Source of the DNA: Candidatus Marinacidobacterales bacterium | GTDB lineage: Bacteria; Acidobacteriota; Vicinamibacteria; Marinacidobacterales; DATDRI01 | Assembly: GCA_965226495.1 (NCBI GenBank) | Contig: OZ245365.1 | Coordinates: forward strand, 1,984,001 to 2,048,000 | Reading direction: 5' to 3' | Length of the DNA stretch: 64,000 nucleotides | In this document: positions 8,375 to 52,169 of the stretch, one piece after another | Layout of the letters: every line of letters starts with the position of its first letter | How positions within the stretch are numbered: the first letter of the stretch is position 1 | The notes under the pieces: generated by a model | Database searches by the model: none | The model's input: the letters and a program-made list of their open reading frames with translations, nothing else | Told to the model about the DNA's origin: nothing | Translations under genes and position numbers: made by a program

Positions 8375-9211
8375 TTGGCAGATCGCGTTGAAAAATCGGT
8401 TTACCAGGAAGTGGAGGACTCCCTCCATCGCGGAGAATCAGTGGCCTTAGTGACCATCTTGAAGACCCAGGGGTCCACGCCGCGAAAGGCAGGCGCCAAG
8501 ATGGTGGTAGGGCGCGACGGACGTCTGCGGGGAACGGTGGGTGGTGGCTGCGTCGAAGCGGAGATCCTCTGGCGCGCCCGCCAAGCCATCGACAACCGCA
8601 AATGCGAGATGCATTCGTTCGACTACAACGCCGATGAAGAAGAAAACGGACTGATTTGTGGAGGGAGCGTGACGGTCTTCATCGAGCCGGTAATTCCCGC
8701 GCCGCGGGTGTTTATGATCGGCGCCGGGCATATCGCCATGCCCCTTAGCCAAATCGCAAAGCTAGCTGGATTCGAAGTCATCGTCCTGGACGATCGGGTC
8801 AAGTACGCAAATCAAGAGCGATTCCCAGACGCCGACGTGGTGGAGGCGGGGCCGATTCCGGAGCTCGCCGACAAGTTCACCTACGGAGACAACGCGTATG
8901 TCGTGATCGTCACCCGCGGGCATACTTCCGACGAGGAGGCCTTGAGAACATTCATCCAGTACGACACTGCCTACCTTGGTTTGATAGGTAGCGTTACTAA
9001 GATCGACAAAATATTCAGTCGCCTGGAGCGCGATGGCGTCCCTCGCGAGAAGTTGGAACGCGTTCACTCTCCGATGGGCCTCGATTTGGGTGGAAGTAAC
9101 CCTGGCGAAATAGCGGTGTCCATCGTCGCCGAGATGGTGGCAGTCCGGTATCAGCGTTCGGGCAAGCCGATGAAGTATACCGAGCGCCAGGAGTACTATG
9201 GCAAAGTCTGA
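8375..9211 (+). CDS. xdhC: XdhC/CoxI family xanthine dehydrogenase maturation protein
   Basis: GSTPRKAGAKM, GTVGGGCVE, ICGG, GAGHIA, VTRGH, YLGLIGS, PMGLDLG. TTG start inferred. Confidence 0.9.
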   Translation: MADRVEKSVYQEVEDSLHRGESVALVTILKTQGSTPRKAGAKMVVGRDGRLRGTVGGGCVEAEILWRARQAIDNRKCEMHSFDYNADEEENGLICGGSVTVFIEPVIPAPRVFMIGAGHIAMPLSQIAKLAGFEVIVLDDRVKYANQERFPDADVVEAGPIPELADKFTYGDNAYVVIVTRGHTSDEEALRTFIQYDTAYLGLIGSVTKIDKIFSRLERDGVPREKLERVHSPMGLDLGGSNPGEIAVSIVAEMVAVRYQRSGKPMKYTERQEYYGKV

Positions 9212-9335
9212 GTCAATCATCGCCAAGGCCAAGCGTCCGGAAACATCCATACCCCTAATCACTTAATCCTCTATCTGCATTCTTTCACCGCCGCCCGAAG
9301 CAGGGGAGGCGTGATTCAGAACCCGTTTTGATCTC

Positions 9336-10280
9336 ATGACCAAGAAGGCAGTTGTCGCTATCGGCGGGAATGCACTGATCCGCCCTGACCAAGCGGGAAC
9401 TATCCCTGAGCAAAGGGCGAACGCCGAAATGGCCCTTCGAAACCTCGTTCCGCTCGTCGAACAAGGGTTTCACTTGATACTCACCCACGGCAACGGCCCT
9501 CAGGTCGGCAATCGTCTGCTGAGAGTAGAAATTTCCGCGGCCCAAGTAGAGCCATTGACGCTCGAACAGTGCGTCGCAGATTCCGAAGGCGGAATGGGTT
9601 TCATGCTGCAGCAGGTCATGGGCAATGTGCTCCGGGAACGGGGAATCGATCGACCGGTAGGAACGGTCGTGACTCAAGTCGTCGTAAACTCCGACGACCC
9701 GGCCTTCGATCACCCGACGAAGCCGATTGGGTTTTTCTACCGTAAAGAGCTTGCGGAAGTACTGCGAGCGCAGAAAGGGTGGACTTTGATCGAGGAACCC
9801 GGCCGCGGCTACCGACGGGTCGTCGCTTCGCCTCTCCCGCAACGGATCGTCGAGCTCCCGGTCATCCGCGCCCTGGTAGATGCGGGAGTCATCGTGATAG
9901 CTGCGGGAGGAGGGGGCATACCGGTCGTGATGGATGAGGGCGGGACGATTCGGGGAGTCGAAGCGGTCATCGACAAGGATCGCGCCTCCAGCTTGCTGGC
10001 CAAGGAAATTGGAGCCGACCTGTTCTTGATCGCGACGGGGGTCGAAAGAGTGTTTCTCAAGTACGGCGAGCCCGACGAGCGGCCTCTGGCCGAGGTCAGC
10101 GTGGATGAAGTCGAAGCTTATTTGAAGGAAGGGCACTTCCCGGCGGGCAGCATGGGGCCCAAGACCGAGGCGGCCATCGATTATCTGCGCGGAGGAGGTC
10201 GCGAAGTGTTGATCGCGGATATAGCGTGCGTTCAACGCGCGCTTCGCGGCGAGGGCGGAACCCGAATCTTGCCGGCATAG
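9336..10280 (+). CDS. arcC: Carbamate kinase
   Basis: AIGGNAL, THGNGPQVG, PTKPIG, RRVVASP, GGGGIPV, AVIDKD, GSMGPK. Confidence 0.95.
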   Translation: MTKKAVVAIGGNALIRPDQAGTIPEQRANAEMALRNLVPLVEQGFHLILTHGNGPQVGNRLLRVEISAAQVEPLTLEQCVADSEGGMGFMLQQVMGNVLRERGIDRPVGTVVTQVVVNSDDPAFDHPTKPIGFFYRKELAEVLRAQKGWTLIEEPGRGYRRVVASPLPQRIVELPVIRALVDAGVIVIAAGGGGIPVVMDEGGTIRGVEAVIDKDRASSLLAKEIGADLFLIATGVERVFLKYGEPDERPLAEVSVDEVEAYLKEGHFPAGSMGPKTEAAIDYLRGGGREVLIADIACVQRALRGEGGTRILPA

Positions 10281-10348
10281 CGCTTTTCTTTTTTTTGCTT
10301 CTAGATTCTTCTTTTCATCGCTTGTCGCAAAATCCTTCAAGTTTTTTC

Positions 10349-10377
10349 TCGACCTGCCCCAAGATATTGGGTAGAAT
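10349..10377 (+). promoter_or_regulatory. Putative promoter for hpt copy 1
   Basis: TCGACC, 17 bp, TAGAAT. Confidence 0.4.
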
Positions 10378-10418
10378 CTCGCACCATAAACTAGATCTTG
10401 GGGGTACGGAGGTGAATC

Positions 10419-10958
10419 TTGTCACGTGGCGATCTCCCAGTCTTGATCGAGGAAAACCGGATTCAACGCCGAGTGGGGCAGATGGCGGAGGAGATTGCCC
10501 GGGACTTCACCGGGAACGACCTGCATATGGTGGGCGTACTTCGAGGGGCTTACCAGTTCACCCAGGATCTCTCGACGAGGATCGGTCTCCCGCACACCGT
10601 GGACTACATCTCGGTAGCCAGCTACGGACAAGGAACGACATCCTCGGGACAGTTGCAGCTTCGCATGGATATGTCCAAGCCGGTGGTGGGGAAAGACGTT
10701 TTGCTCGTCGATGACATCGTAGACACCGGACTCACCTTGAGCTGGTTAGTAGATTACATGAGGACCCACAACCCCCGGTCCGTTCGCACGTGCTGCTTTT
10801 TGGACAAGCCGTCGCGACGGCAGGTGCCGGTTCCGACCGACTACATCGGATTTCCGATCGAGGATGTGTTCGTCGTCGGTTACGGGCTGGACTACCAGGA
10901 GAAGTATCGGGAGTTGCCGTTCATCTCGTGTGTTTCCCCGAAGGAGATTTTGGTCTAG
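10419..10958 (+). CDS. hpt: Hypoxanthine phosphoribosyltransferase (copy 1)
   Basis: GVLRGA, VLLVDDIVDTGLTL, LDKPSRR, FVVGYGLD. Confidence 0.93.
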   Translation: MSRGDLPVLIEENRIQRRVGQMAEEIARDFTGNDLHMVGVLRGAYQFTQDLSTRIGLPHTVDYISVASYGQGTTSSGQLQLRMDMSKPVVGKDVLLVDDIVDTGLTLSWLVDYMRTHNPRSVRTCCFLDKPSRRQVPVPTDYIGFPIEDVFVVGYGLDYQEKYRELPFISCVSPKEILV

Positions 10959-10969
10959 CCGCGCGCTTT

Positions 10970-10996
10970 GCCGGCTAAGCCGGCTTAGCCGGCTTA
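10970..10996. repeat. Perfect 24-bp palindrome built from 9-bp units at the convergent hpt/deoC junction (probable bidirectional terminator)
   Basis: GCCGGCTAAGCCGGCTTAGCCGGC (10970-10993) is its own reverse complement. Confidence 0.75.
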
Positions 10997-11847
10997 GAAC
11001 GACCCGCTTCTTGTAAGATTCGAATGCCTGCACTGGCGCCGATGCGCGTGGCCCCCGCCTCGACCATCTTAGTAGCGGTAGCAGCGTCTCTGACTCCACC
11101 CGCCGCCTTGACTCCAATCTTTTCCCCCACGACCTGACGCATCAAAGCCACATCTTCCACCGTCGCTCCGCCGGGGCCGAATCCTGTCGAGGTCTTGACG
11201 AAGTCGGCTCCCGCTGCCGCGGTCAACGTGCTCGCCTTGATCTTCTCCTCTTGGTTCAAAAGCGCCGCCTCGATGATGACCTTCGACAAAGCGCCGGCCT
11301 CCTGGCAACAGCAGACGACTCCCACGATGTCCGACTCGACCAGCTTGTAGTCCTTTGACTTCAAGGCGCCCACGTTGATAACCATATCGATTTCCGTCGC
11401 GCCATCGAAAAGAGCACGTCGCGTCTCGTAGATCTTGACGTCCGCGGTGTTGGCGCCTAGGGGGAACCCGACCACGGTACAGACACCTACCGGAGTACCC
11501 TTCAATAGGGAAGACGCGAGCCGAACCCAAGTCGGGTTCACGCACACGGTTGCGAATCCGTATTGTGCGGCTTCCTCGCATAGTTTCCGGATCTGGGTCT
11601 CGGTGGCATCGGGCTTGAGAAGGGTGTGGTCGATCATGCGCCCGAGCGATGTACCGTGATGCTCGGGATCGGCGTGGAGTCCCAGTCGTTCCGCACCGCC
11701 GTCAACGAGTCCGCGGATCACGTTGGGGCAGCGGCTGAGGCCAATCTCGTGACAGTGGCAGGTGCCTTCCGCTTCTATCTGCGCAAGGATGGCGCGGGTG
11801 ATGGACTCGGTTAGAGCGTCGAGTTCCTCTCGAGAGATCAAGGTCAA
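10975..11847 (-). CDS. deoC: Deoxyribose-phosphate aldolase with about 65-aa N-terminal extension
   Basis: IDHTLLKP, VVGFPLG, EIDMVIN, KVIIE, FVKTSTGF, VKAAGGVR, RIGAS. Confidence 0.95.
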   Translation of the reverse strand: MTLISREELDALTESITRAILAQIEAEGTCHCHEIGLSRCPNVIRGLVDGGAERLGLHADPEHHGTSLGRMIDHTLLKPDATETQIRKLCEEAAQYGFATVCVNPTWVRLASSLLKGTPVGVCTVVGFPLGANTADVKIYETRRALFDGATEIDMVINVGALKSKDYKLVESDIVGVVCCCQEAGALSKVIIEAALLNQEEKIKASTLTAAAGADFVKTSTGFGPGGATVEDVALMRQVVGEKIGVKAAGGVRDAATATKMVEAGATRIGASAGIRILQEAGRSKPAKPA

Positions 11848-12488
11848 ACTCCTCGGTAGTACTTTCGCTCAACTCGAACTATCTTGCGAACCCGTCGTCG
11901 GTGCCGCTCTTCGGTCATCTCGGAGGCCAGAAAAGCCTTCACCACCAGAGCCATCTTTTCCTTGGAGATCATTCGAGCTCCGAGCGTTAGAACGTTGGCG
12001 TCGTTGTGCTCGCGACTGTTGCGGGCGGTGGCTTCGTCAGGGCACGACGCCGCCCGAACACCGGGGACTTTGTTTGCAGTCATCGCCGAACCGATCCCCG
12101 CGCCGTCGACGACGATGCCGAGCTCCGCGTTCCCTACTGCTACCGCCAGAGCCACGGCGTGAGCGACGTCGGGATAGTCGACGGGCTCGGTGGAGTTGGT
12201 ACCGTAGTCGACGAAGCTTTCGCCCATTTCGGACAGAAGGGCCTTGACCGCCTCTTTCATTTCGTAACCGCCGTGATCGGATCCAACAGCGATTCGCCCC
12301 TTTTGAGCGGGCTTAGCTTGAGACTTACCTTCGCGAACGACGCGAATCTGCTTTTTTTCGATCCATTCGCGGGCGATGTCGGTAACGATGGCGCCCTTCG
12401 GCAAATCCAAGATGGCTCCATGCGGTAGAGACTGAACGTCCTCTCCCGTGATGAATCGACGGTTCTGCTTTTCTAAGGGAGGGGCCAT
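11844..12488 (-). CDS. rpiB: Ribose-5-phosphate isomerase B with extra N-terminal domain
   Basis: GSDHGG, DYPD, DGAGIGSAMTANKVPGVRAA, SREHNDANVLTLG, RHRRRV. Confidence 0.92.
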   Translation of the reverse strand: MAPPLEKQNRRFITGEDVQSLPHGAILDLPKGAIVTDIAREWIEKKQIRVVREGKSQAKPAQKGRIAVGSDHGGYEMKEAVKALLSEMGESFVDYGTNSTEPVDYPDVAHAVALAVAVGNAELGIVVDGAGIGSAMTANKVPGVRAASCPDEATARNSREHNDANVLTLGARMISKEKMALVVKAFLASEMTEERHRRRVRKIVRVERKYYRGV

Positions 12489-12489
12489 C

Positions 12490-14039
12490 TCAGCGTGATG
12501 CGGCCGGAGAGCTCTCGCGGACGATGAATTCGGTCTCGGTCTCGGCTTGCTCGCCCGTCACTTCGTCGGTCACCCGCACCCTCAACGTATATTGTCCGGC
12601 CGAACACTTCCGGAGGGGAATGGATGCCGAGATGCCGGCGGGCTCGGAGGTGGGGAAGAGATGACTCGCCGGAACCCCCATGAAGAGTCGGCCGTATCTC
12701 ATGATGAAGAAGTCCACCTTGAGTCTCTGCTTGTCGTCGGGTCCCGGTGTCGCTCCGTACGCTTCTAGATACATGCTCAGGCTCTCGTCGGTTTGGAACG
12801 TTATGTCGAAACTGGGACGACTCGCACGGTCCCGAACTGAAAAGGGCTCGCCGTCGATAGCGTCGCTGGAACGAGGGCGCGGGCCAACACCAGGTTGCCC
12901 AGCGAGAGGGCCTGTTGTTGTGCGGGCGCGCGGACGTCCAGCGGTCGCTCCGAGCTTCCGATCTTGTTCTGCTCGTTGTCCCTTATCAAGGCCTGCAGTT
13001 TGTAGGCCCCGGGAGCGACTTCCAGTTTCTCCTCAATGAAGAGCTTGTGATTCGCGGCGTCGGCATACTGGCCCTTGGTCAAACTAAAAACGAGGTGATT
13101 CTGAATGATGGCCGCTTCCTCTCCCTCTCCATCGACTAGCCGAATCACATAGTCGAGATCGAAAACCATCTTTTCTGCGTCGAGCTGGGAAGCGAGCTCT
13201 TGGTAAGGGACAGCCAAACCCACTGGAACCGTCACCTTGCCGTTTTCGATGTGCTGGGCACCGGTGGCTACTCCGACCGACAGACGGGCAAAGGTCACCC
13301 TGGCGTCCACCACTTCACCCAACGGTTGCAAGGTGCGCTCCGGCCGTTGGATCTCTTGGAGCTGCTCTTGCAGATCGAACTCGTTCATGGTCAATTGAGT
13401 GGGGTCGGTCCCGTACTTCTCCCCGCCCGTCTGCAGATCTTCCACGCCACCCGTCTGCCGGCGCATGGCCCAGGCATGAAGTGGCGTCTCGGCTACTCCG
13501 AAGATGGTAGCCACCGGGGCCGATGTGTCGATGTCGGATACGATCTCGAACTCGCCGGTTCCCTTGAAATCGACGAACTTGATGTCGAGGCTTGGGGGTA
13601 TCTGGGGTATGTCGAGGTTGTTGTAGGTCCAGATCTCGGATGGCCGCTCGTATGCCGTGCGGCCCATCGGATTTTGCTGGATGGAGTGAGGCGGGCCCAG
13701 CAACAAGTAGATGCGGCCTCGATCCGTTGCCCACCCGGGCTTTCCCGCCGAGAAGGCTTTCGTCGCATAGAAGAACCGTTGGAAGTAATCGCGGCGATAC
13801 TCGTTCTCCGGCGTCGGGTCACGGCGCCGCCAAAACTGCTCGATGAAAAGCAGCCGCTCTTCATCGGTGGTCATGGCCTTGTACTGGTCGCGCTCCCCGT
13901 CGGTGATGATCCAGCGAATGTACTGATCCGACCACCGCTCGAGAAGTTTCGATAGCTCTTCGCCGCCGATCGTGTCGGGTACATGCGCGCCAACGCCTGG
14001 CGAAGCGAAGCTCAGAGCGAAAGTAAGGAGCAAAATCAT
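12490..14039 (-). CDS. GWxTD domain-containing exported protein; one frameshift near 12815
   Basis: FIEQFWRRRDPTP...GWATDRGRIYLLLGPP. ORFs 12801-14156 and 12490-12774 join (VVPSFDITFQTDESLSMYLEA) if one base is restored in a C run. Confidence 0.85.
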
Positions 14040-14049
14040 CGAGGGATGG

Positions 14050-14078
14050 AGTTTATTTCCGACCGCGACGAGTGTCAA
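14050..14078 (-). promoter_or_regulatory. Sigma70-type promoter for the GWxTD-rpiB-deoC unit
   Basis: Minus strand TTGACA (14078-14073), 17 bp, TAAACT (14055-14050). Confidence 0.55.
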
Positions 14079-14258
14079 ACAGCAACGAACAAAACCTTTC
14101 TTGTTCTCCAATCGGTGACATTGTATACAGTCGACCTCGGAATTAGTCTGATGCAAAGGGCGCTAATTTATCGTCAGACTTAGATCCAAACATTTCGAAC
14201 ACTGCTGATTCAGATGTCCGTACTTATCCACTCACGTGCATGCATCGAAGGGGGTCCT

Positions 14259-17231
14259 ATGTCTGTGAAACGCTGTCTTGAAGCGACGCTGGTGGTAGCG
14301 CTGCTGACATTCATTAGTACCCCGGCTCTTCCACAAGCCGGTGTGACCCTCGGTACCATCGAGGGTACGGTGCGCGACTCGACCGGCGGTGTACTCCCGG
14401 GTGCAACGGTCACGATTCGTAACATCGAGACCGGGTTCACTCGCGTTGTCGTCACGGCAGGAAACGGTCTCTTCCGAGCTCCGCTACTTCCGGTTGGTGA
14501 CTACGTGGCGACCATCGAGCTCGCCGGATTCAAGACCATGGTGCAGGAAGGCATCATTCTTTCGATCTCGGCGACGGTGACGCTGCCCAACCTCACCATG
14601 GAAGTGGCCACGGTAGAGGAAACCGTTACCGTCACGTCCGAATCGCCGATTGTGGAAACCAATCGAGGCGTGCAGTCGGCCACCATCCGAGACCAGGCCA
14701 TCTCCAGTCTGCCGACCAAATCGCGCGACTTCCAGGACATGGCAGTATTGACTCCCACCGTCATCAAGGAGTTCGATCGCGGCACGATCTCCATGGGGGG
14801 GCAGAAGGGCATCGACACCAACATCACGCTCGACGGTGCCGACTTCAACAATTCCTTCTTCGGCAACGCAGCGGGCAGCCCGAGTCCCAGCAGTTTGTCA
14901 TTGCCCAGGAGGCCGTCGAGGAGTTCCAGGCTTTGGCCAACGGTTACACCGCGGAGTTTGGCCGGGCCGGTGGCGGTATTTTGAACGTGGTCACCAAGTC
15001 GGGGACCAACGCGCTCAAAGGGAGCGCGTTCTACTTCGGCCGCGACCAGGCCCTAAAGGGCACGTTGACCAACTTCCGGGGTGGTGACATCCCAATACCG
15101 ACTTCAACCAGAAGCAATTCGGCGGAAGCGTCGGGGGGCCGATCGTGACCGATAAGGCGCACTATTTCTTTGCCCTCGAACGATCGAACTTGACGAATCC
15201 CTTCGAGGTCTTGTTCGATCGGCCCACCGCCGGCGTTTCGAACGTGGCGCGCTTCGGCATGCCAATTTCCGGAGTCGACCTCATCGCGGGGGAGCAAGGC
15301 CAGTTCGACAGCCAAACGAAGCTCTTGGCGATCCTCGGTAAAGTCGACTTTCAGATCAACGACAGCAATACATTCACCGTCCGTTACAACTTCAGCAAGT
15401 TCCAGGGTGTCAACTTCGGTGCGAGCACCGTCGACAGCGATGCGCTGGGCATGACCGAGGACACCAGCGATACGTCTAATTCGCTCGTCGCCTCCAACAC
15501 CACCGTCATCGGCACCAACAAGTTCAATGAGTTCCGGTTCCAGTACGCCATCGAGGATCGGCCGCGTCTGGGTACGTCCAACGAGGTACCCACAATGTCG
15601 AGATCCGGGACTGCTGCCAGTGGGTCGTCAGGGCTTTCTGCCGATTACGTCCGAGCACACGCGGATTCAGTTCTCGGACAATTTCACGTACCTGTTCGAG
15701 AGCCATGACTTGAAGGTCGGTGTCGACATGAACTTCACGAACGACAATCAGACCTTCATCGGCTTTTCCGGCGGCGAGTACGAGTTCAGCACGCTGGAGG
15801 ACTATCTGGCGGATCCGCAAGTCATTCGCAGCTTCCAACAGCGCGTGGGACTGAACGGCTTCACCACCGAGGAGTCCGGCACCATCGACTTCTGGCGGAG
15901 CGATATCGCTTTCTACGTCCAGGATAACTGGAGGCCGAGGCCCGACTTGAACGTCAATATAGGCCTGCGCTGGACGGGAACCAACAATCCTACCGTTCCA
16001 GAAATGGAGGGCGGAAAACTGGCCATAAACCCCGCGAATCCGGGCGGCGTCTTCGATCTCACACAGCACTTCATCCCCAACGACTACAACCAGTGGGCAC
16101 CGCGCCTCTTCGTCGCCTGGGATCCCCAAAACGATGGAAAGCAAGTCGTCTCCGTTTAGGCGGGGGCATCTTTTACTCCAAGACACCCGCGCTTCTGTTC
16201 GCCCAGATCTTCACCGACAACGGATACCGGCAGGGCATCGTGTTTCGGAACAACCCGGACCCCACCGAGTTGGTGTTCCCGAACATATTGCCGGAGGACG
16301 GGATCCCGGCGGATTCTCCCATCAATGATGAGCTTCCCCCCTCGACATCGCCATCTTCTCGCCCAACTATAGAAATCCGCAGGTGCAACGGTTCAACGTT
16401 GGCTATGAGAAGGAGTTGGCGCCGAACTTCTCGGTGGGTGTGGACTATGTCTATGCGCACTCCATCCGGCAGCAGCGACGGCGGGACATCAACCTGGACA
16501 ACCCCACCGAGTTCGATGAGCTCGGCAGGGGTCTCTTCGATGAAAACGATCGCCCCGACCCCAATTACCGCCGGTTCCCCTTCACCGAGTCGAATGCCAA
16601 TGGTCGCTACCAGGCGATCATCTTCCAGGTCAGGAGACGGGCCACCGGGAACATCCTCTTTCAATTCTTCTACACCTATTCGGTGAACAACTCCGAAGAC
16701 GACAACGAGCGGAGCGCCGGCGGGATTAACCCGTCACAGCCTGAGAACCTGGGGGTGGACTGGGGCGACTCCGATCGTGGCGTTCGGCATCGTTGGGTCT
16801 CCAACGTGGTGGTCGATCTGCCCGCCAACTTCAAAGTGGCGACAGGAATTGTTTACAACTCCGGCCGTCCCTTCAACGTGTTCTCGGGGAGGGATAACAA
16901 CGGTGACGATCGATTCAACGACCGGGCGTTTATCGACGACTCCAATCGACAGAGGGGCATCGACGCGGGCCAGGATTTACCCGACGGCCTCCAGCTCCGG
17001 AACAGCGCCCGGCAACCTAGGTTTTTCAAGATCGATATGCGTATTACCTGGTCCGCGGTATTCGGCGGCGGCGGCCACAATATCGATCTCATGTTGGATC
17101 TTTTCAACCTCACCAACGATGCGAATCGCTTTCAATCGGGCAACGACAGGTACGATCTGTCCACTTTCGGTGTGCTGAACCGGGTAGGAGACTCCTTCCA
17201 GGCGCAGTTCGGAGCTCGCTACCGCTTCTAG
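14259..17231 (+). CDS. TonB-dependent receptor (Oar/carboxypeptidase-regulatory-like type), about 990 aa, split by six -1 frameshifts
   Basis: Signal peptide, GTVRDSTGGVLPGATV, VEEFQ...YTAEFGRAGGG.LNVVTKSGTN, YVQDNW, WAPRL, C-terminal QFGARYRF. Pieces lie in ORFs 14214, 14933, 15145, 15527, 16093 and 16383. Confidence 0.9.
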
Positions 17232-24932: not shown

Positions 24933-26141
24933 CTACGGGTTCAGGAGGCCGGCGATGGTTGCGGTCATAAAAGTCGCCAGGGAGCCACCTAGCACTGCGC
25001 GAAGTCCCAGCTTGGCCAGATCGGACTTTCGCGTCGGCGCAAGTCCCCCGATTCCACCGAGCTGGATGCCGATGGAGCCGAGGTTGGCGAAACCGCATAG
25101 TGCGTAGGTTGCGATGAGCTCCGAGCGTGGCGCGAGCGCATTGGCTGCCTTGAGTGTGAGGAGATCGGCGTACGCTACGAATTCGTTCACGATGAGCTTC
25201 TTTCCGAACAAGCTGCCGACCTCATTGGCATCGGCCCACGGCACCCCCATCACGTATGCCAGAGGCGCGAAAATCCAGGCGAAGATCTGCTCGAGAGAGA
25301 GGCCGACGTACTGGAGTGGCCAGTTAACGAGCGCGACGAGCGATAGGAAAGCGATCAGCATCGCTCCCACGTTCAACGCCAGGTTGAGTCCGGCCCCCGC
25401 GCCCCGCGCCGCGGCATCAATAATGTTCACCTCCGTCCGTTCCACCTTGAGCTTCACCTCACCCTTGGTTAGTGGCGTACCCGTCTCCGGAACCAGAATC
25501 TTGGCCATAACGATCGCCGCCGGGGCATTCATGACGCTCGCCGCCAGCAGGAACTTGGTTTCGATCCCCATCGATATATAGGCTGCCATCATGCCTCCTG
25601 AGATGGTGGCCATGCCTCCTACCATCAAAGTGCAGAGCTCGGAGTACGTCATGCTTGCGATGTACGGCATGACCACCAACGGTGCCTCGGTCTGCCCCAT
25701 GAACACATTGGCCGCCGTGGAGAGTGATTCGGCGCCACTCGTCCCCATGGTGCGTGCCATGATCTTTGCCATGAACAGGACGAGCTTCTGCAGGATGCCC
25801 AGGTAATAGAGGACGCTAAAAAACGAAGATATATAAATAATGGTGGGCAGGGCCTTGAACGCGAAAATGAATCCCAGAGTTTCCTGGTTGGCGAGGGGTC
25901 CAAAGAGGAACGCCGCCCCGGCGTCGGCCTTCTCCAGGCCCGCCGTGACCCCCCTACTGATCCAGTCGAGGCCCTTCTCGCCCCAAGACCACTTCATGAC
26001 CATCAAGGCGAAGGCGAATTGAAGTATGAGGCCCCAGAGGATCAGCCGCGGGTTCACGTTCTTGCGGTCGGTTGAAAACGCGTAGGCGATACCGAGGATC
26101 ACGACCAGCCCCACGACTCCAATGAAACGGTCTATCATCAC
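24933..26141 (-). CDS. nupC: Concentrative nucleoside transporter (NupC/CNT family)
   Basis: NVFMGQTEAPL, GMATISG, KLIVNEFVAY, YALCGFANLGSIGI. Confidence 0.93.
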   Translation of the reverse strand: MMIDRFIGVVGLVVILGIAYAFSTDRKNVNPRLILWGLILQFAFALMVMKWSWGEKGLDWISRGVTAGLEKADAGAAFLFGPLANQETLGFIFAFKALPTIIYISSFFSVLYYLGILQKLVLFMAKIMARTMGTSGAESLSTAANVFMGQTEAPLVVMPYIASMTYSELCTLMVGGMATISGGMMAAYISMGIETKFLLAASVMNAPAAIVMAKILVPETGTPLTKGEVKLKVERTEVNIIDAAARGAGAGLNLALNVGAMLIAFLSLVALVNWPLQYVGLSLEQIFAWIFAPLAYVMGVPWADANEVGSLFGKKLIVNEFVAYADLLTLKAANALAPRSELIATYALCGFANLGSIGIQLGGIGGLAPTRKSDLAKLGLRAVLGGSLATFMTATIAGLLNP

Positions 26142-27457
26142 GTCTCCTTCGCCGGATCAAGGACTCTGTGTACAAGAGGAACAGGCGCCGGGGGCTCATC
26201 TTGAATGTGGTAAGCGCCGGCGAGCAACTGTTCGACTTCTTCCAACCGCCGGTTATCGTTGTAGTGAATCGTCACCAGGGTATCGCCTGCCGATAGGCGG
26301 TTCCCAATCTTGCTATTGACGACCAGTCCGACAGCGGGATCGATGATGCCGTCCACCGTCTCGCGTCCGGCTCCGAGCAACATGGCTGCGACTCCGAGTG
26401 ATTCGGTGTCGATGCGTCCCACGTATCCCGCCCTTGGACCCCGAACTTCTTTGCGGTGCGCCGCCTCCGGTAACTTGCCGGGGTCGTCGATAACGCTTGC
26501 ATCCCCGTCTTGAAGTCTCACAATTTCCGTGAATTTTTCGAGGCCCTCGCCCGAGGCGATCAGGTTGGCGGCCTTCGTTTTTCCTTCATCGACATCGCTT
26601 ACGACTCGGCCGAAGACTAGCATGTAGGCGGTGAGAAGCAAGGAAAGCTCCCTCAGATCCTCCGGGCCCTCGCCGCGGAGCACCGCGATCGATTCTTTCA
26701 CCTCGAGAGAGTTTCCTACGTGCGTTCCGAGCGGCTGATCCATATCGCTCACCACTGCCACCGATCGTTTGCCCATGCGGTGAGCGATCGATGCGATCAA
26801 GCCCCCGAGCTCAGTGGCGGAATTGATGTCCTTCATGAACGCTCCGCTACCGACTTTTACATCTAAGACGAGTCCGGTAATTCCTTCTGCCAGTTTCTTC
26901 GACAGGATGCTGCCTACGATCAACGGGACACTCTCTACCGTCCCGGTAACATCGCGAAGCGCGTATAGCTTTCGGTCGGCCGGTGCGATCTCTTTCGTTT
27001 GACCGATGAGCGCGCAACCGGCCTTGCCCAATACTTCTCGGAACCGAGTGAGGCTCAGACCGACGTCGAATCCCGGGATGGACTCCAGCTTATCGAGCGT
27101 GCCACCGGAATGACCGAGGCCGCGGCCGGAGATCATGGGAACCGTCACACCGGCCGCCGCCGCCAAGGGAACGATGATGAGCGACGTCTTGTCGCCCACG
27201 CCGCCGGTGCTGTGCTTGTCGATCTTCTCGCCGGGAATATCGGAGAGATCGAGGACCGAGCCGCTGTGAAGCATCTCTTCGGTGAGAGCCAGAGTTTCCT
27301 GTTCGGTCATGCCGACCAAAGTGACCGCCATCAAGAAGGCGGCAAGCTGGTAGTCGGGGATGGTTCCGTCGATGAGCCCCGCCATCAGAAATGCGATTTC
27401 TTGTCGGTCGAGCTCCGCTCGGTGTCGTTTGCGACGAATGATGTCGACGGCTCTCAC
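26138..27457 (-). CDS. pdp: Pyrimidine-nucleoside/thymidine phosphorylase
   Basis: DKHSTGGVGDK, SGRGLGHSGGTLDKLE, LYALRDVT, SILSKK. Confidence 0.95.
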   Translation of the reverse strand: MRAVDIIRRKRHRAELDRQEIAFLMAGLIDGTIPDYQLAAFLMAVTLVGMTEQETLALTEEMLHSGSVLDLSDIPGEKIDKHSTGGVGDKTSLIIVPLAAAAGVTVPMISGRGLGHSGGTLDKLESIPGFDVGLSLTRFREVLGKAGCALIGQTKEIAPADRKLYALRDVTGTVESVPLIVGSILSKKLAEGITGLVLDVKVGSGAFMKDINSATELGGLIASIAHRMGKRSVAVVSDMDQPLGTHVGNSLEVKESIAVLRGEGPEDLRELSLLLTAYMLVFGRVVSDVDEGKTKAANLIASGEGLEKFTEIVRLQDGDASVIDDPGKLPEAAHRKEVRGPRAGYVGRIDTESLGVAAMLLGAGRETVDGIIDPAVGLVVNSKIGNRLSAGDTLVTIHYNDNRRLEEVEQLLAGAYHIQDEPPAPVPLVHRVLDPAKET

Positions 27458-27542: not shown

Positions 27543-27626
27543 ATCATGCCGCGGTGTGCCGGAGAGTGTCAACACGGTCGGTTAGTTACGCCATCGTTTG
27601 ACAGCGTCGCGGCGTGAGCCTACCAT
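27543..27626. promoter_or_regulatory. Divergent promoters for the pdp operon (-) and upp (+)
   Basis: Minus: TTGACA 27572-27567, 18 bp, CATGAT. Plus: TTGACA 27598-27603, 17 bp, TACCAT 27621-27626. Confidence 0.55.
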
Positions 27627-27651
27627 CGTCCTGGCGAACGGAGAACGTGAC

Positions 27652-28269
27652 ATGGCAGTGGTCAAGGTCGAACATCCTCTAATAGAAGATGTGCTCACGG
27701 TCCTTCGCGATTCTTCCACGACACACGAAGAATTTCGTCGACTAACCAGGAAGCTTAGCCGGCTGCTCGTCTTCGAAGCATCGCGGGACCTACCGTTACG
27801 AGAGGTCGACGTCGAGACACCCTTGGAGACGACGCGGGGCGGACGATTGGATACCGATATCGTCCTCGTACCTGTGCTCCGAGCGGGGATGGGGATGCTG
27901 GAAGCCCTACTCGAGTTGTTCCCGGGAGCTTCGGTCGGCTACGTGGGGTTGGAGCGTGACGAAGAGACGGCCGTCGCGCGCCGTTACTACCGGAAGCTTC
28001 CGAATCTTCCCGACCGGCAGGTGTTTCTTCTGGACCCGATGTTGGCCACCGGTGGCTCGGCTCTGGCTGCTATCGAGACGCTCCAAGAGCAGGGGGCACG
28101 GTCCATCCGGCTTCTGTGCGTGGTCGCGGCCCCGGAAGGGATAGCGCTCCTTACGAAACACTGCCCCGAGGTAGATATCTACTCCGCGGCGATCGATCGG
28201 CAACTCGACGAACGAAAGTACATCCTCCCCGGGCTCGGAGACTTCGGCGACCGACTCTTCGGAACGTGA
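27652..28269 (+). CDS. upp: Uracil phosphoribosyltransferase
   Basis: VPVLRAG, LDPMLATGGS, YILPGLGDFGDRLFGT. Confidence 0.96.
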   Translation: MAVVKVEHPLIEDVLTVLRDSSTTHEEFRRLTRKLSRLLVFEASRDLPLREVDVETPLETTRGGRLDTDIVLVPVLRAGMGMLEALLELFPGASVGYVGLERDEETAVARRYYRKLPNLPDRQVFLLDPMLATGGSALAAIETLQEQGARSIRLLCVVAAPEGIALLTKHCPEVDIYSAAIDRQLDERKYILPGLGDFGDRLFGT

Positions 28270-50984: not shown

Positions 50985-52169
50985 GTGACCAGAAGGGCCT
51001 TCTCACGTGCGATCGTTATCGTCATGGACGGCGTTGGAGTCGGCGAGCTCCCCGACGCCGCCGACTACGGTGACCGAGGAACGAACACTGTCGCCCATAT
51101 CGCCACCTCTCAAAACCTGAAAGTTCCTTTTCTCGCCAGCTTGGGGCTTGCCAAGCTCGTGCCCGACCTGCAGGCGCCCGAGTCCCTCACCGGTGCTTTC
51201 GGCAAGATGAACGAGGCCTCGCCGGGTAAGGACAGCACGACCGGCCACTGGGAGATGGCCGGCATCGTCCTCGAGAAGGCTTTTCTGACCTATCCGAAAG
51301 GGTTTCCAAACGAGCTGATCGAAGAGTTCGAAGAGCAGATCGGGCGTGAGACGCTGGGAAATCGAGCCGCGAGTGGAACGGTGATCATTCAAGAGCTGGG
51401 CGAAGAGCACCGGCGAACCGGCAAGCCCATCGTGTACACCTCGGCGGACAGCGTTTTTCAAATCGCGACCCATGAAGAAGTCGTTCCGATCGATGACCTC
51501 TACAAGATGTGCCAGATCGCCTTCGACCTTGCGGTCAAGGACTACGGCGTCGCGCGGATCATTGCCCGGCCTTTCCTCGGAGACAAAGCCGGTTCGTTCG
51601 CTAGGACGTCACGGCGTCGCGACTTCGTGCCCAAAGCCCCTCGGCCCACTTTGCTCGATCGAATGGCGGAGCACGATCTCGGCGTGTTCGGCGTAGGTAA
51701 GATCGAAGATCTTTTCGCCGGTTCAGGCGTCTCGGAGGCTGTTCACACCGAGAGTAACGCGCACGGCATTGCCGAGACGTTCAATGCGATGAAAAAGTCG
51801 GACGCTGATTTCATCTTTACCAACCTCGTCGATTTCGACCAACAGTATGGGCATCGGAACGACGTCCCTGGCTTCGCCCGCGCACTCGAGGAATTAGATC
51901 AAAGTCTTCCAGGGTTGATGGCGGCGGCAAGAGATGACGACCTCGTGCTCCTCACCGCTGACCATGGCTGTGATCCAACCACGCCCTCCACCGATCATTC
52001 CCGGGAATATGTTCCGTTGTTGGCCGCTGGCAAACGGGTGCGGGCAGGGGCCGACTTGGGCATCCGCAGTAGCTTTGCGGATCTTGGACAAAGCCTGGCC
52101 GAGAACTTCGGATTGGGCCAGCTCGGGGCTGGGGAGAGTTTTCTACAGGAGCTGCTGGCGAGCCGTTGA
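50985..52169 (+). CDS. deoB: Phosphopentomutase
   Basis: VMDGVGVG, GKDSTTGHWE, YTSADSV, NLVDFD..YGHRND, TADHGCDPT, DHSRE. Confidence 0.95.
   Translation: MTRRAFSRAIVIVMDGVGVGELPDAADYGDRGTNTVAHIATSQNLKVPFLASLGLAKLVPDLQAPESLTGAFGKMNEASPGKDSTTGHWEMAGIVLEKAFLTYPKGFPNELIEEFEEQIGRETLGNRAASGTVIIQELGEEHRRTGKPIVYTSADSVFQIATHEEVVPIDDLYKMCQIAFDLAVKDYGVARIIARPFLGDKAGSFARTSRRRDFVPKAPRPTLLDRMAEHDLGVFGVGKIEDLFAGSGVSEAVHTESNAHGIAETFNAMKKSDADFIFTNLVDFDQQYGHRNDVPGFARALEELDQSLPGLMAAARDDDLVLLTADHGCDPTTPSTDHSREYVPLLAAGKRVRAGADLGIRSSFADLGQSLAENFGLGQLGAGESFLQELLASR

Follow-up and report, generated by a model that had tools for sequence, protein, structure and literature searches.

The rpiB-deoC locus

The stretch of DNA analysed here (the window; 64,000 nucleotides, positions 1,984,001 to 2,048,000 of contig OZ245365.1, assembly GCA_965226495.1, Candidatus Marinacidobacterales bacterium) carries on its minus strand a pair of adjoining genes, rpiB and deoC, encoding an RpiB-like protein of the ribose-5-phosphate isomerase (RPI) type and the aldolase DeoC (DERA). 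The gene order is RPI then DERA, and the two open reading frames (ORFs) overlap by 4 nt. An earlier note, made from the sequence of the window, had proposed the pair as a satellite locus of a sugar-phosphate-utilisation (SPU) bacterial microcompartment (BMC). The proposal was followed up in the genome (G000; one contig of 6.34 Mb, 94.8% complete), using 93,983 six-frame ORFs for the genome and 919 for the window. The features of the pair are as follows.

11844..12488, minus strand: rpiB-like gene, 214 aa; SPU-type RPI (PF02502) with Asp128 replacing the catalytic Cys and His161 kept
12333..12458, minus strand: RpiB N-terminal mini-domain, residues 11-52 (AlphaFold2 fold; 66% identity; resembles the PduM C-terminus and the EutQ N-terminus)
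10975..11847, minus strand: deoC (DERA), 290 aa from the first TTG (TIGR00126)
11770..11832, minus strand: DeoC N-terminal helix, residues 6-26, proposed encapsulation peptide (AlphaFold2; pattern conserved in homologues)
11677..11766, minus strand: DeoC Cys3-His knuckle and GA-x-R-x-G segment, residues 28-57 (conservation in 43 sequences)

In RpiB, PF02502 spanned residues 66-203 (174.2 bits), leaving residues 1-65 as an extra segment, and the TIGR01120 rpiB score (137.1 bits) was just under its cut-off of 138.65. AlphaFold2 models, computed from alignments of 45 (RpiB) and 43 (DeoC) sequences (mean pLDDT 87 and 85, respectively), folded residues 11-52 of RpiB into a small beta-alpha-beta-beta-alpha-beta domain (pLDDT 83-88) and left the linker after it (residues 55-60) disordered, with no amphipathic helix. 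As modelled, the extension is a folded mini-domain and not an amphipathic peptide. Homologues were compared among the best 120 listed for each protein, with alignments restricted to RpiBs of at least 195 aa and DeoCs of at least 270 aa (5 and 11 shorter homologues, respectively, were excluded). The RpiB extension was kept in 115 of the 120, and mean identity to the window protein was 70% in the catalytic domain, 66% in the mini-domain and 15% in the linker. Asp128 aligned to the catalytic Cys of solved RpiBs and was invariant in the 45 sequences. Since the catalytic Cys is an Asp, the RPI-like protein is probably not a ribose-5-phosphate isomerase. It is the sole RpiB in the genome, which also encodes a housekeeping RpiA (at 4.16 Mb).

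In DeoC, TIGR00126 spanned residues 68-278 (281.8 bits; cut-off 117.3), so that residues 1-67 are extra. Translation probably begins at the second TTG, at 11841, because GAGGAG lies 7 nt upstream of it and homologues begin at the matching position (M-I-S-K-E-E-L). The model of the extension comprised helix 6-26 (pLDDT about 75), a Cys/His segment at 28-40 (about 62-66), a second helix at 41-49 and disorder at 54-66. This extension was kept in 109 of the 120 homologues, and mean identity to the window protein was 39% in the helix, 53% in the knuckle, 27% in the linker and 77% in the barrel. Within the knuckle, C30, C32, H33, C40 and P41 were at least 90% conserved, and G51, R54 and G56 were invariant (43 sequences); the knuckle is probably a metal site. 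A canonical encapsulation peptide is an amphipathic helix of about 15-20 residues that a poorly conserved linker joins to its enzyme. Helix 6-26 is followed by a linker of low identity, but its hydrophobic moment of 0.38 was reached by 10% of shuffled sequences and is thus not significant. The window DeoC is the only one in the genome; no second, untagged DeoC was found there. Searches of the genome ORFs with a profile of the whole extension and with one of the helix only returned one extra match each (E 0.0066 and 0.28), both spurious: an arginine-rich ORF antisense to glycosyltransferase genes and another arginine-rich ORF, respectively.

Both proteins carry the hallmarks of SPU enzymes as given in the available parts of the 2024 SPU paper (Dwyer et al. 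2024, PMC11585597). According to these, all SPU DERAs have an N-terminal extension of about 70 aa that is absent from non-BMC DERAs, and all SPU RPIs have an N-terminal extension, an Asp at the position of E. coli Cys66 and a retained His99. The window DeoC is a TIGR00126 aldolase with an extension of this size, made of a helix plus extra elements, and the window RpiB combines a pfam02502 domain and an N-terminal extension with Asp at the Cys66 position and an equivalent of His99. The closest likeness is to the SPU6 pair of Chloroflexi bacterium GWB2_54_36, which shares the RPI-DERA order, a DERA extension of about 70 aa with a long helix and low-confidence elements, and an extended RPI with the same Asp and His. 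The SPU6 RPI had negligible ribose-5-phosphate isomerase activity, and DERA and RPI co-purified as a complex (PMC11585597). Unlike the SPU6 protein, the window RPI has the folded mini-domain only, the amphipathic helix being absent. No mention of the Cys knuckle was found in the available parts of that paper. The assignment of both genes to SPU-type enzymes, here based on a DERA extension of about 67 aa and on Asp128 in RPI, and the extra N-terminal domain of RpiB, now seen as folded and conserved, agree with the earlier note. Of the amphipathic helix and Cys/His linker that it described in DeoC, helix and knuckle are present, but the amphipathicity is modest.

Shell and aldehyde dehydrogenase genes at two distant sites

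None of the 919 window ORFs matched BMC-H, BMC-P or a BMC-type aldehyde dehydrogenase (AldDh), as had been noted for the 64 kb, and no shell, AldDh or regulator gene lies within 10 kb of rpiB-deoC. The shell genes and BMC-type AldDh that a microcompartment would need were found elsewhere in the genome, which holds in total 2 BMC-H genes, 3 BMC-P genes and one BMC-type acylating AldDh, with no BMC-T match. They are located at two sites. At site A (about 111-114 kb), the gene order is TPR protein, YHS-like protein, class II aldolase, BMC-H, three BMC-P and a 100-aa protein; at site B (about 1,573 kb), the second BMC-H is followed by the AldDh. Measured from the window pair, site B is 0.42 Mb and site A 1.88 Mb away, and the two sites are 1.46 Mb apart. 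The main genes (positions within the excerpted loci L006, site A, and L007, site B) are:

L006 9308-10159: class II aldolase, 283 aa, Pfam domain at residues 23-197 and a C-terminal helix after it
L006 10257-10556: BMC-H
L006 10583-11429: three BMC-P genes
L006 11426-11728 (about 113.4-113.7 kb of the contig): 100-aa protein, directly after the BMC-P triplet
L007 9928-11709 (about 1,573.9-1,575.7 kb of the contig): AldDh, 593 aa (TIGR02518)

The AldDh reached the cut-off of the acetylating acetaldehyde dehydrogenase equivalog (TIGR02518; 623.8 bits against 620.1), an assignment that fits the product of DERA. The split into three sites was kept in all five near-complete relatives read (G158, G056, G011, G080 and G134), with sites A and B conserved gene for gene and the pair either 0.39-1.07 Mb from them or on another contig.

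In gene content, sites A and B resemble the ACI type of the 2021 BMC catalogue (Sutter et al. 2021, PMC8217296; available parts), which was found only in Acidobacteria, the phylum of the present genome. Like ACI loci, they combine a BMC-P triplet and one or more BMC-H genes with a class II aldolase that carries a targeting helix at its C-terminus and with small proteins of uncharacterised function; in G000 and all five relatives the AldDh lies, as in ACI, on a satellite with its own BMC-H. Unlike ACI loci, no 2-hydroxyacid dehydrogenase (pfam00389/02826) was encoded in 20 ORFs covering about 9 kb on either side of site A, to which that search was confined. The pair also sets this system apart from the catalogued types: an SPU locus encodes DERA and RPI together with shell and AldDh, whereas here the nearest shell gene is the BMC-H of site B; and in the available text and family table of the catalogue the DeoC and RpiB models are named for SPU only. 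No publication was found that links ACI or Vicinamibacteria microcompartments to DERA or RPI, among sources that did not extend to the locus diagrams in Supplementary Data 2 of Sutter 2021, which may bear on the point. Judged by gene content, the organelle appears better described as ACI-like with SPU signature enzymes than as a canonical SPU locus. Of the earlier proposal, the satellite-cargo part is thereby supported, but the shell and AldDh loci are of ACI and not of canonical SPU type.

The 100-aa protein of site A has an N-terminal helix and a conserved C-terminal four-Cys motif ending in K-L-G-H/Y, was kept in 5/5 relatives and matched no Pfam or NCBIfam family; it is a candidate for a further cargo protein or assembly factor. 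Near site B, a ChlI-like gene (L007 12337-13909) is split in two.

A mini-domain shared by RpiB and the dehydrogenase

When a profile of the RpiB mini-domain was run against the genome ORFs, RpiB itself was recovered at E 1.6e-26 and the sole other significant match was the extreme C-terminus of the AldDh encoded beside BMC-H at site B (E 1.8e-4; next match E 0.73). There the mini-domain is preceded by an extra helix and a long Ser/Thr/Pro-rich linker, and it was kept in the six genomes read (6/6). The AldDh therefore bears two different C-terminal elements after its catalytic domain, a conserved short helix (V-E-E-R-V-x-x-[YF]-L-x-x-R-G) and the terminal mini-domain. In the class-mate G072, the mini-domain lies between an amphipathic helix and the catalytic domain in the RPI of a complete shell locus.

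The mini-domain had been likened to the N-terminus of EutQ, and this likeness was recovered in part: it aligned to E. coli EutQ residues 3-47 with an hhalign E of 8e-4 but a probability of only 24.6%. The PduM family model PF15953 matched 10 of 11 members through its last 40 or so positions, with a best E of 4.7e-5 that is under the Pfam cut-off, and TIGR04493 gave E 0.0035 (17.2 bits against a cut-off of 50); the aligned part corresponds to PDU_like positions 112-152. The common pattern is I-T-x-x-D-V ... I-V-T-P/D-x-A-R-E over about 40 residues. The curated PduM-family cut-off, which applies to the whole model, was not reached, and the proteins concerned appear to share a module with PduM and EutQ without being members of those families. 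The module is here fused to enzymes (RPI N-terminus, AldDh C-terminus), unlike in EutQ and PduM, where it is part of a cupin or structural protein. Residues 9-41 of EutQ bind the shell (Sci Adv 2025, PMC12487888; available parts); the corresponding EutQ segments H1/H2 are described there as helices, whereas the window module is predicted to be mixed alpha/beta. On this basis, the RpiB mini-domain is proposed to be a shell-binding or core-assembly module.

Against 1.84 billion representative proteins, the profile produced 366 matches at E ≤0.001. The best 150 of these comprised 30 RpiB, 2 class II aldolase, 3 ACT, 2 flavoprotein (PF02441), 2 PDU_like and 1 POR_N proteins, 2 from other families, 3 that were low-complexity junk and 105 without a Pfam family. 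The BMC catalogue of 2021 (PMC8217296; available part) lists several of the partner families (class II aldolase, ACT, flavoprotein, POR) in its family table. A query of the ESM Atlas with the mini-domain gave no usable match.

These results bear on a different reading of RpiB, in which the mini-domain serves regulation or ligand binding (it might be TGS-like, for example), is unrelated to microcompartments and sits on an active cytosolic sugar-phosphate isomerase that uses the Asp as its base. Pfam TGS did match 3 of 11 members, weakly (best E 0.0084), and activity is on record for a mycobacterial RpiB whose catalytic base is Glu (PMC11585597, available parts). However, the same module sits on the BMC AldDh C-terminus and on in-locus SPU RPIs beside shell genes, and is fused elsewhere to the BMC-catalogue families just named; the SPU6 RPI with the same Asp is nearly inactive as an isomerase, and RpiA covers the housekeeping role. 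A regulatory domain on a working isomerase is accordingly regarded as very improbable.

DERA loci and DERA phylogeny

DERA loci were surveyed more widely by a pattern scan of one genome per species, from which the best 80 loci were taken. Shell genes were present in the flanks of none of the 42 Acidobacteriota loci, compared with 28 of 38 loci from other phyla; among loci with at least 5 kb on both sides, the numbers were 0/25 and 15/18, respectively. Each of five acidobacterial genomes with a detached DERA that were tested (5/5) contained three BMC-H genes elsewhere.

In a tree of 86 DERA sequences (a quick IQ-TREE search with SH-aLRT support only), a long branch (100% SH-aLRT) separated two extension-less DeoCs of the same class (from G021 and G003) from every one of the 84 extended DERAs. 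The window DERA thus belongs to the extended, BMC-associated family, as SPU DERAs do, and does not group with these plain DeoCs. It was placed with other detached DERAs, nearly all of them acidobacterial, in a group of 47 (support 90) that adjoins shell-adjacent DERAs of Actinomycetota, Planctomycetota, Elusimicrobiota and Chloroflexota. Nested in the acidobacterial detached clade were DERAs from three contigs binned as Betaproteobacteria and Heliomicrobium (L046, L059 and L064); these contigs are probably mis-binned. The detached DERAs form two clades, one of Vicinamibacterales and one of Pyrinomonadaceae/Blastocatellia, which we take to be the two ACI subdivisions, presumably corresponding to acidobacterial subdivisions 6 and 4.

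The form of the knuckle is lineage-specific. The window form, C-x-C-H...C-P, was seen in 15 of 41 detached acidobacterial DERAs, and four-Cys forms occur in Pyrinomonadaceae and in shell-adjacent SPU DERAs; 5 of the 80 loci had no anchor motif and were excluded from this count.

Occurrence in the class and order

Occurrence was tallied in 251 genomes of the class, including G000 and two unpublished genomes (G110 and G244) on which no claim solely depends. Of the 251, 213 had BMC-H, 216 an RpiB-family gene and 175 DeoC. Within the order, all seven genomes of family f1 had BMC-H, RpiB and DeoC (7/7 each; 6/6 without G110), and in family f3 BMC-H was present in 19/19, RpiB in 17/19 and DeoC in 17/19, the two f3 genera without a match being represented by one sampled genome each (84% and 75% complete). 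Family f2 lacked BMC-H and RpiB in 28/28 genomes and had a single DeoC-family match (1/28; distant, E 2e-13, query residues 98-258). When the 62-aa RpiB N-terminus served alone as the query sequence, 49 of the 251 genomes matched; this search was too insensitive outside the order and was not used for co-occurrence. In three genomes, the RpiB and DeoC matches lie in one frame of 427-452 aa (G209:C34:171603-172829, G218:C2:1477960-1479195 and G222:C9:231247-232476); these single-frame genes are RPI-DERA fusions like the published SPU3 chimera.

One genome of the window's DERA lineage lacks shell genes. G228 (97% complete) contained no BMC-H or BMC-P, and its DERA, which lies inside the group of the window DERA, starts directly after a stop codon, so that the helix is absent; the Cys knuckle is kept and there is no adjacent RpiB. 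This is a single case.

The distribution and the setting of the pair allow the extensions to be read as relics: the two enzymes would be of BMC descent but now serve cytosolic deoxynucleoside catabolism, their extensions being kept for oligomerisation, stability or metal-dependent regulation. Consistent with this, the pair lies amid nucleotide-salvage and molybdenum-cofactor genes across the order (HPRT and molybdenum-cofactor genes are its usual neighbours) and never with shell genes, deoA, nupC and deoB share its window, the DeoC helix is weakly amphipathic, and retention of the knuckle in the shell-less G228 means that part of the extension is independent of a shell. On the other hand, the RpiB mini-domain is conserved as strongly as the catalytic domain and its sole other copy in the genome is on a shell-linked AldDh; within the order the pair occurs only in families with shells; G228 has lost both the helix and the RpiB partner; and the genome holds no untagged DeoC besides. 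We therefore regard the relic reading as unlikely, although less so than the regulatory one above.

The pair might also belong to a second, separate SPU organelle and not to the aldolase/AldDh compartment. Two class-mates, G072 (L011 5574-11238) and G138 (L012), own complete SPU6-like loci, with RPI, DERA, BMC-T-like, BMC-H, BMC-P, AldDh, BMC-T and two more BMC-P genes. The present genome, however, has one organelle's worth of shell genes and one BMC-type AldDh, with no BMC-T match, and all tagged enzymes must share this one set. In the tree, the DERA of G072 lies with those of Chloroflexota and not with the window DERA, and the in-locus AldDh of G072 is only 30% identical to the TIGR02518-type AldDh of G000, which belongs to another lineage than the SPU6-like enzyme. 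A second organelle is the least probable of the readings considered. Because the DERAs of G072 and G138 group with Chloroflexota and Gemmatimonadota DERAs, horizontal acquisition of their loci is suggested, as far as the sequences go. On the same grounds (the DERA grouping and the 30% AldDh identity), these in-locus arrangements were dropped as the ancestral state of the detached pair.

A probable shell-less cargo satellite of an ACI-like organelle

Taken together, we consider it likely that rpiB-deoC is a shell-less cargo satellite of a microcompartment whose genes lie at three chromosomal sites, and that it feeds deoxyribose-5-phosphate into an ACI-like organelle. The window contains the genes for the preceding steps:

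24933-26141, minus strand: nupC, nucleoside transporter (TIGR00804, 443 bits; cut-off 442)
26138-27457, minus strand: deoA, pyrimidine-nucleoside phosphorylase (TIGR02644, 528.4 bits; cut-off 409; also found by tblastn with E. coli DeoA)
50985..52169, plus strand: deoB, phosphopentomutase (NF003766, 507.9 bits; cut-off 256; also found by tblastn with E. coli DeoB)

A uracil phosphoribosyltransferase gene (27598-28269, plus strand) is also encoded in the window. With deoA, nupC and deoB, the window holds what is needed to turn nucleosides into deoxyribose-5-phosphate, the substrate of DERA, in the cytosol; deoA and nupC are likely the cytosolic upstream supply of deoxyribose-1-phosphate. In the proposed pathway, nucleosides would enter through NupC, and DeoA and DeoB would make deoxyribose-5-phosphate in the cytosol. 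The N-terminal helix of DERA would bring the enzyme into the organelle. The RPI-like protein would bind DERA (by analogy with the SPU6 pair) and be held at the shell or at the core of the cargo by its mini-domain. The dehydrogenase, bearing the same mini-domain at its C-terminus, would be packaged with them and convert acetaldehyde to acetyl-CoA. Acetaldehyde from DERA would suit an acetylating AldDh better than would the lactaldehyde released by a fuculose-phosphate-type aldolase.

Several points weigh against this cargo-satellite interpretation. The encapsulation of DERA and RPI is itself an inference. The shells of this class can dispense with DERA, as in family f9 BMC-H is present in 31/31 genomes and DERA in 0/31. 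The DeoC helix has a moment that chance sequences reach fairly often (see above), and a helix-only profile found neither the targeting helix of the aldolase nor any other cargo among the genome ORFs. The window RpiB lacks the amphipathic helix that precedes the mini-domain in the in-locus SPU RPI of G072, and the likeness of that domain to EutQ and PduM is weak, the hhalign probability being low and the Pfam and NCBIfam scores below their cut-offs. No PduL phosphotransacylase was found in the genome, which leaves CoA recycling unexplained. The family counts within the order, finally, amount to few independent events, since relatives share ancestry.

A precedent for remote, tagged cargo of this kind exists in the HO organelles, for which a pfam01791 aldolase with an encapsulation-peptide-like N-terminal extension is encoded away from the shell locus and was proposed as cargo (Sutter et al. 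2021, PMC8217296; available parts). The HO genomes differ in phylum (Myxobacteria) and shell type, and no RPI partner or shared mini-domain is described for them in the same parts. No new principle is therefore involved: earlier publications already cover satellite loci, SPU enzymes and, for HO genomes, a tagged DERA encoded far from the shell. BMC catalogues, however, define an organelle by the neighbours of its shell genes, and here the shell genes are 0.4-1.9 Mb away from the pair that most likely determines the substrate, a detachment that holds across two large, soil-abundant acidobacterial lineages. If the cargo-satellite interpretation is correct, an uncharacterised organelle type would gain a testable function (catabolism of the DNA sugar through acetaldehyde), cargo could be found genome-wide by its tags, and the small folded module common to two cargo enzymes would be a candidate targeting or assembly domain, possibly of use for engineering.

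Two broader proposals follow, which we put forward tentatively and with slightly more doubt than belief. The ACI microcompartments of soil Acidobacteria, catalogued in 2021 without an assigned substrate, may be deoxyribose-phosphate or dual-substrate organelles, the DERA-RPI pair having been missed by locus-based catalogues since it is always far from shell genes. In addition, the PduM-C/EutQ-N-like mini-domain of about 40 residues may represent a second portable targeting class, a folded shell-binding or core-assembly domain distinct from the amphipathic encapsulation peptide and reused on several cargo families.

Neighbouring genes and other observations

Directly upstream of rpiB lies a gene for a GWxTD-domain protein, whose stop codon is 1 nt before the RpiB ATG:

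12490..14156, minus strand: GWxTD-domain gene (PF20094/TIGR04514), with a frameshift near 12,800 and ORFs of 451 aa and 94 aa

The pair had been placed in one operon behind the GWxTD gene. The 1-nt spacing and the absence of any terminator-like site on the minus strand at GWxTD-rpiB-deoC agree with this, but the arrangement is confined to the genus: the GWxTD gene was upstream of the pair only in G000, G158 and G083, and in none of seven other relatives (0/7). The GWxTD gene is an incidental neighbour that does not belong to the system. In the genus-mate G083, the gene is a single continuous ORF. Contigs of four sequencing runs from four studies, some of them perhaps the source of this DNA, show the window version without any indel; the break is therefore real and did not arise in assembly. 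In two genus-mates, G083 (L014 about 9100-10880) and G158 (L013 about 8830-10590), rpiB and deoC are separated by an inserted gene of about 586 aa. Its product is rich in repeats, starts with a hydrophobic segment and looks FG-GAP/VCBS-like by eye; in G158 the gene is apparently frameshifted.

Sequencing run X12 contained a second short contig with six substitutions within window positions 11719-11779 (the end of the DeoC helix and the knuckle), representing a co-occurring strain variant. At 14214-17231 on the plus strand, a large gene resembling those of outer-membrane receptors (TonB-dependent-like by eye) is interrupted and now reads as four or more overlapping ORFs in different frames.

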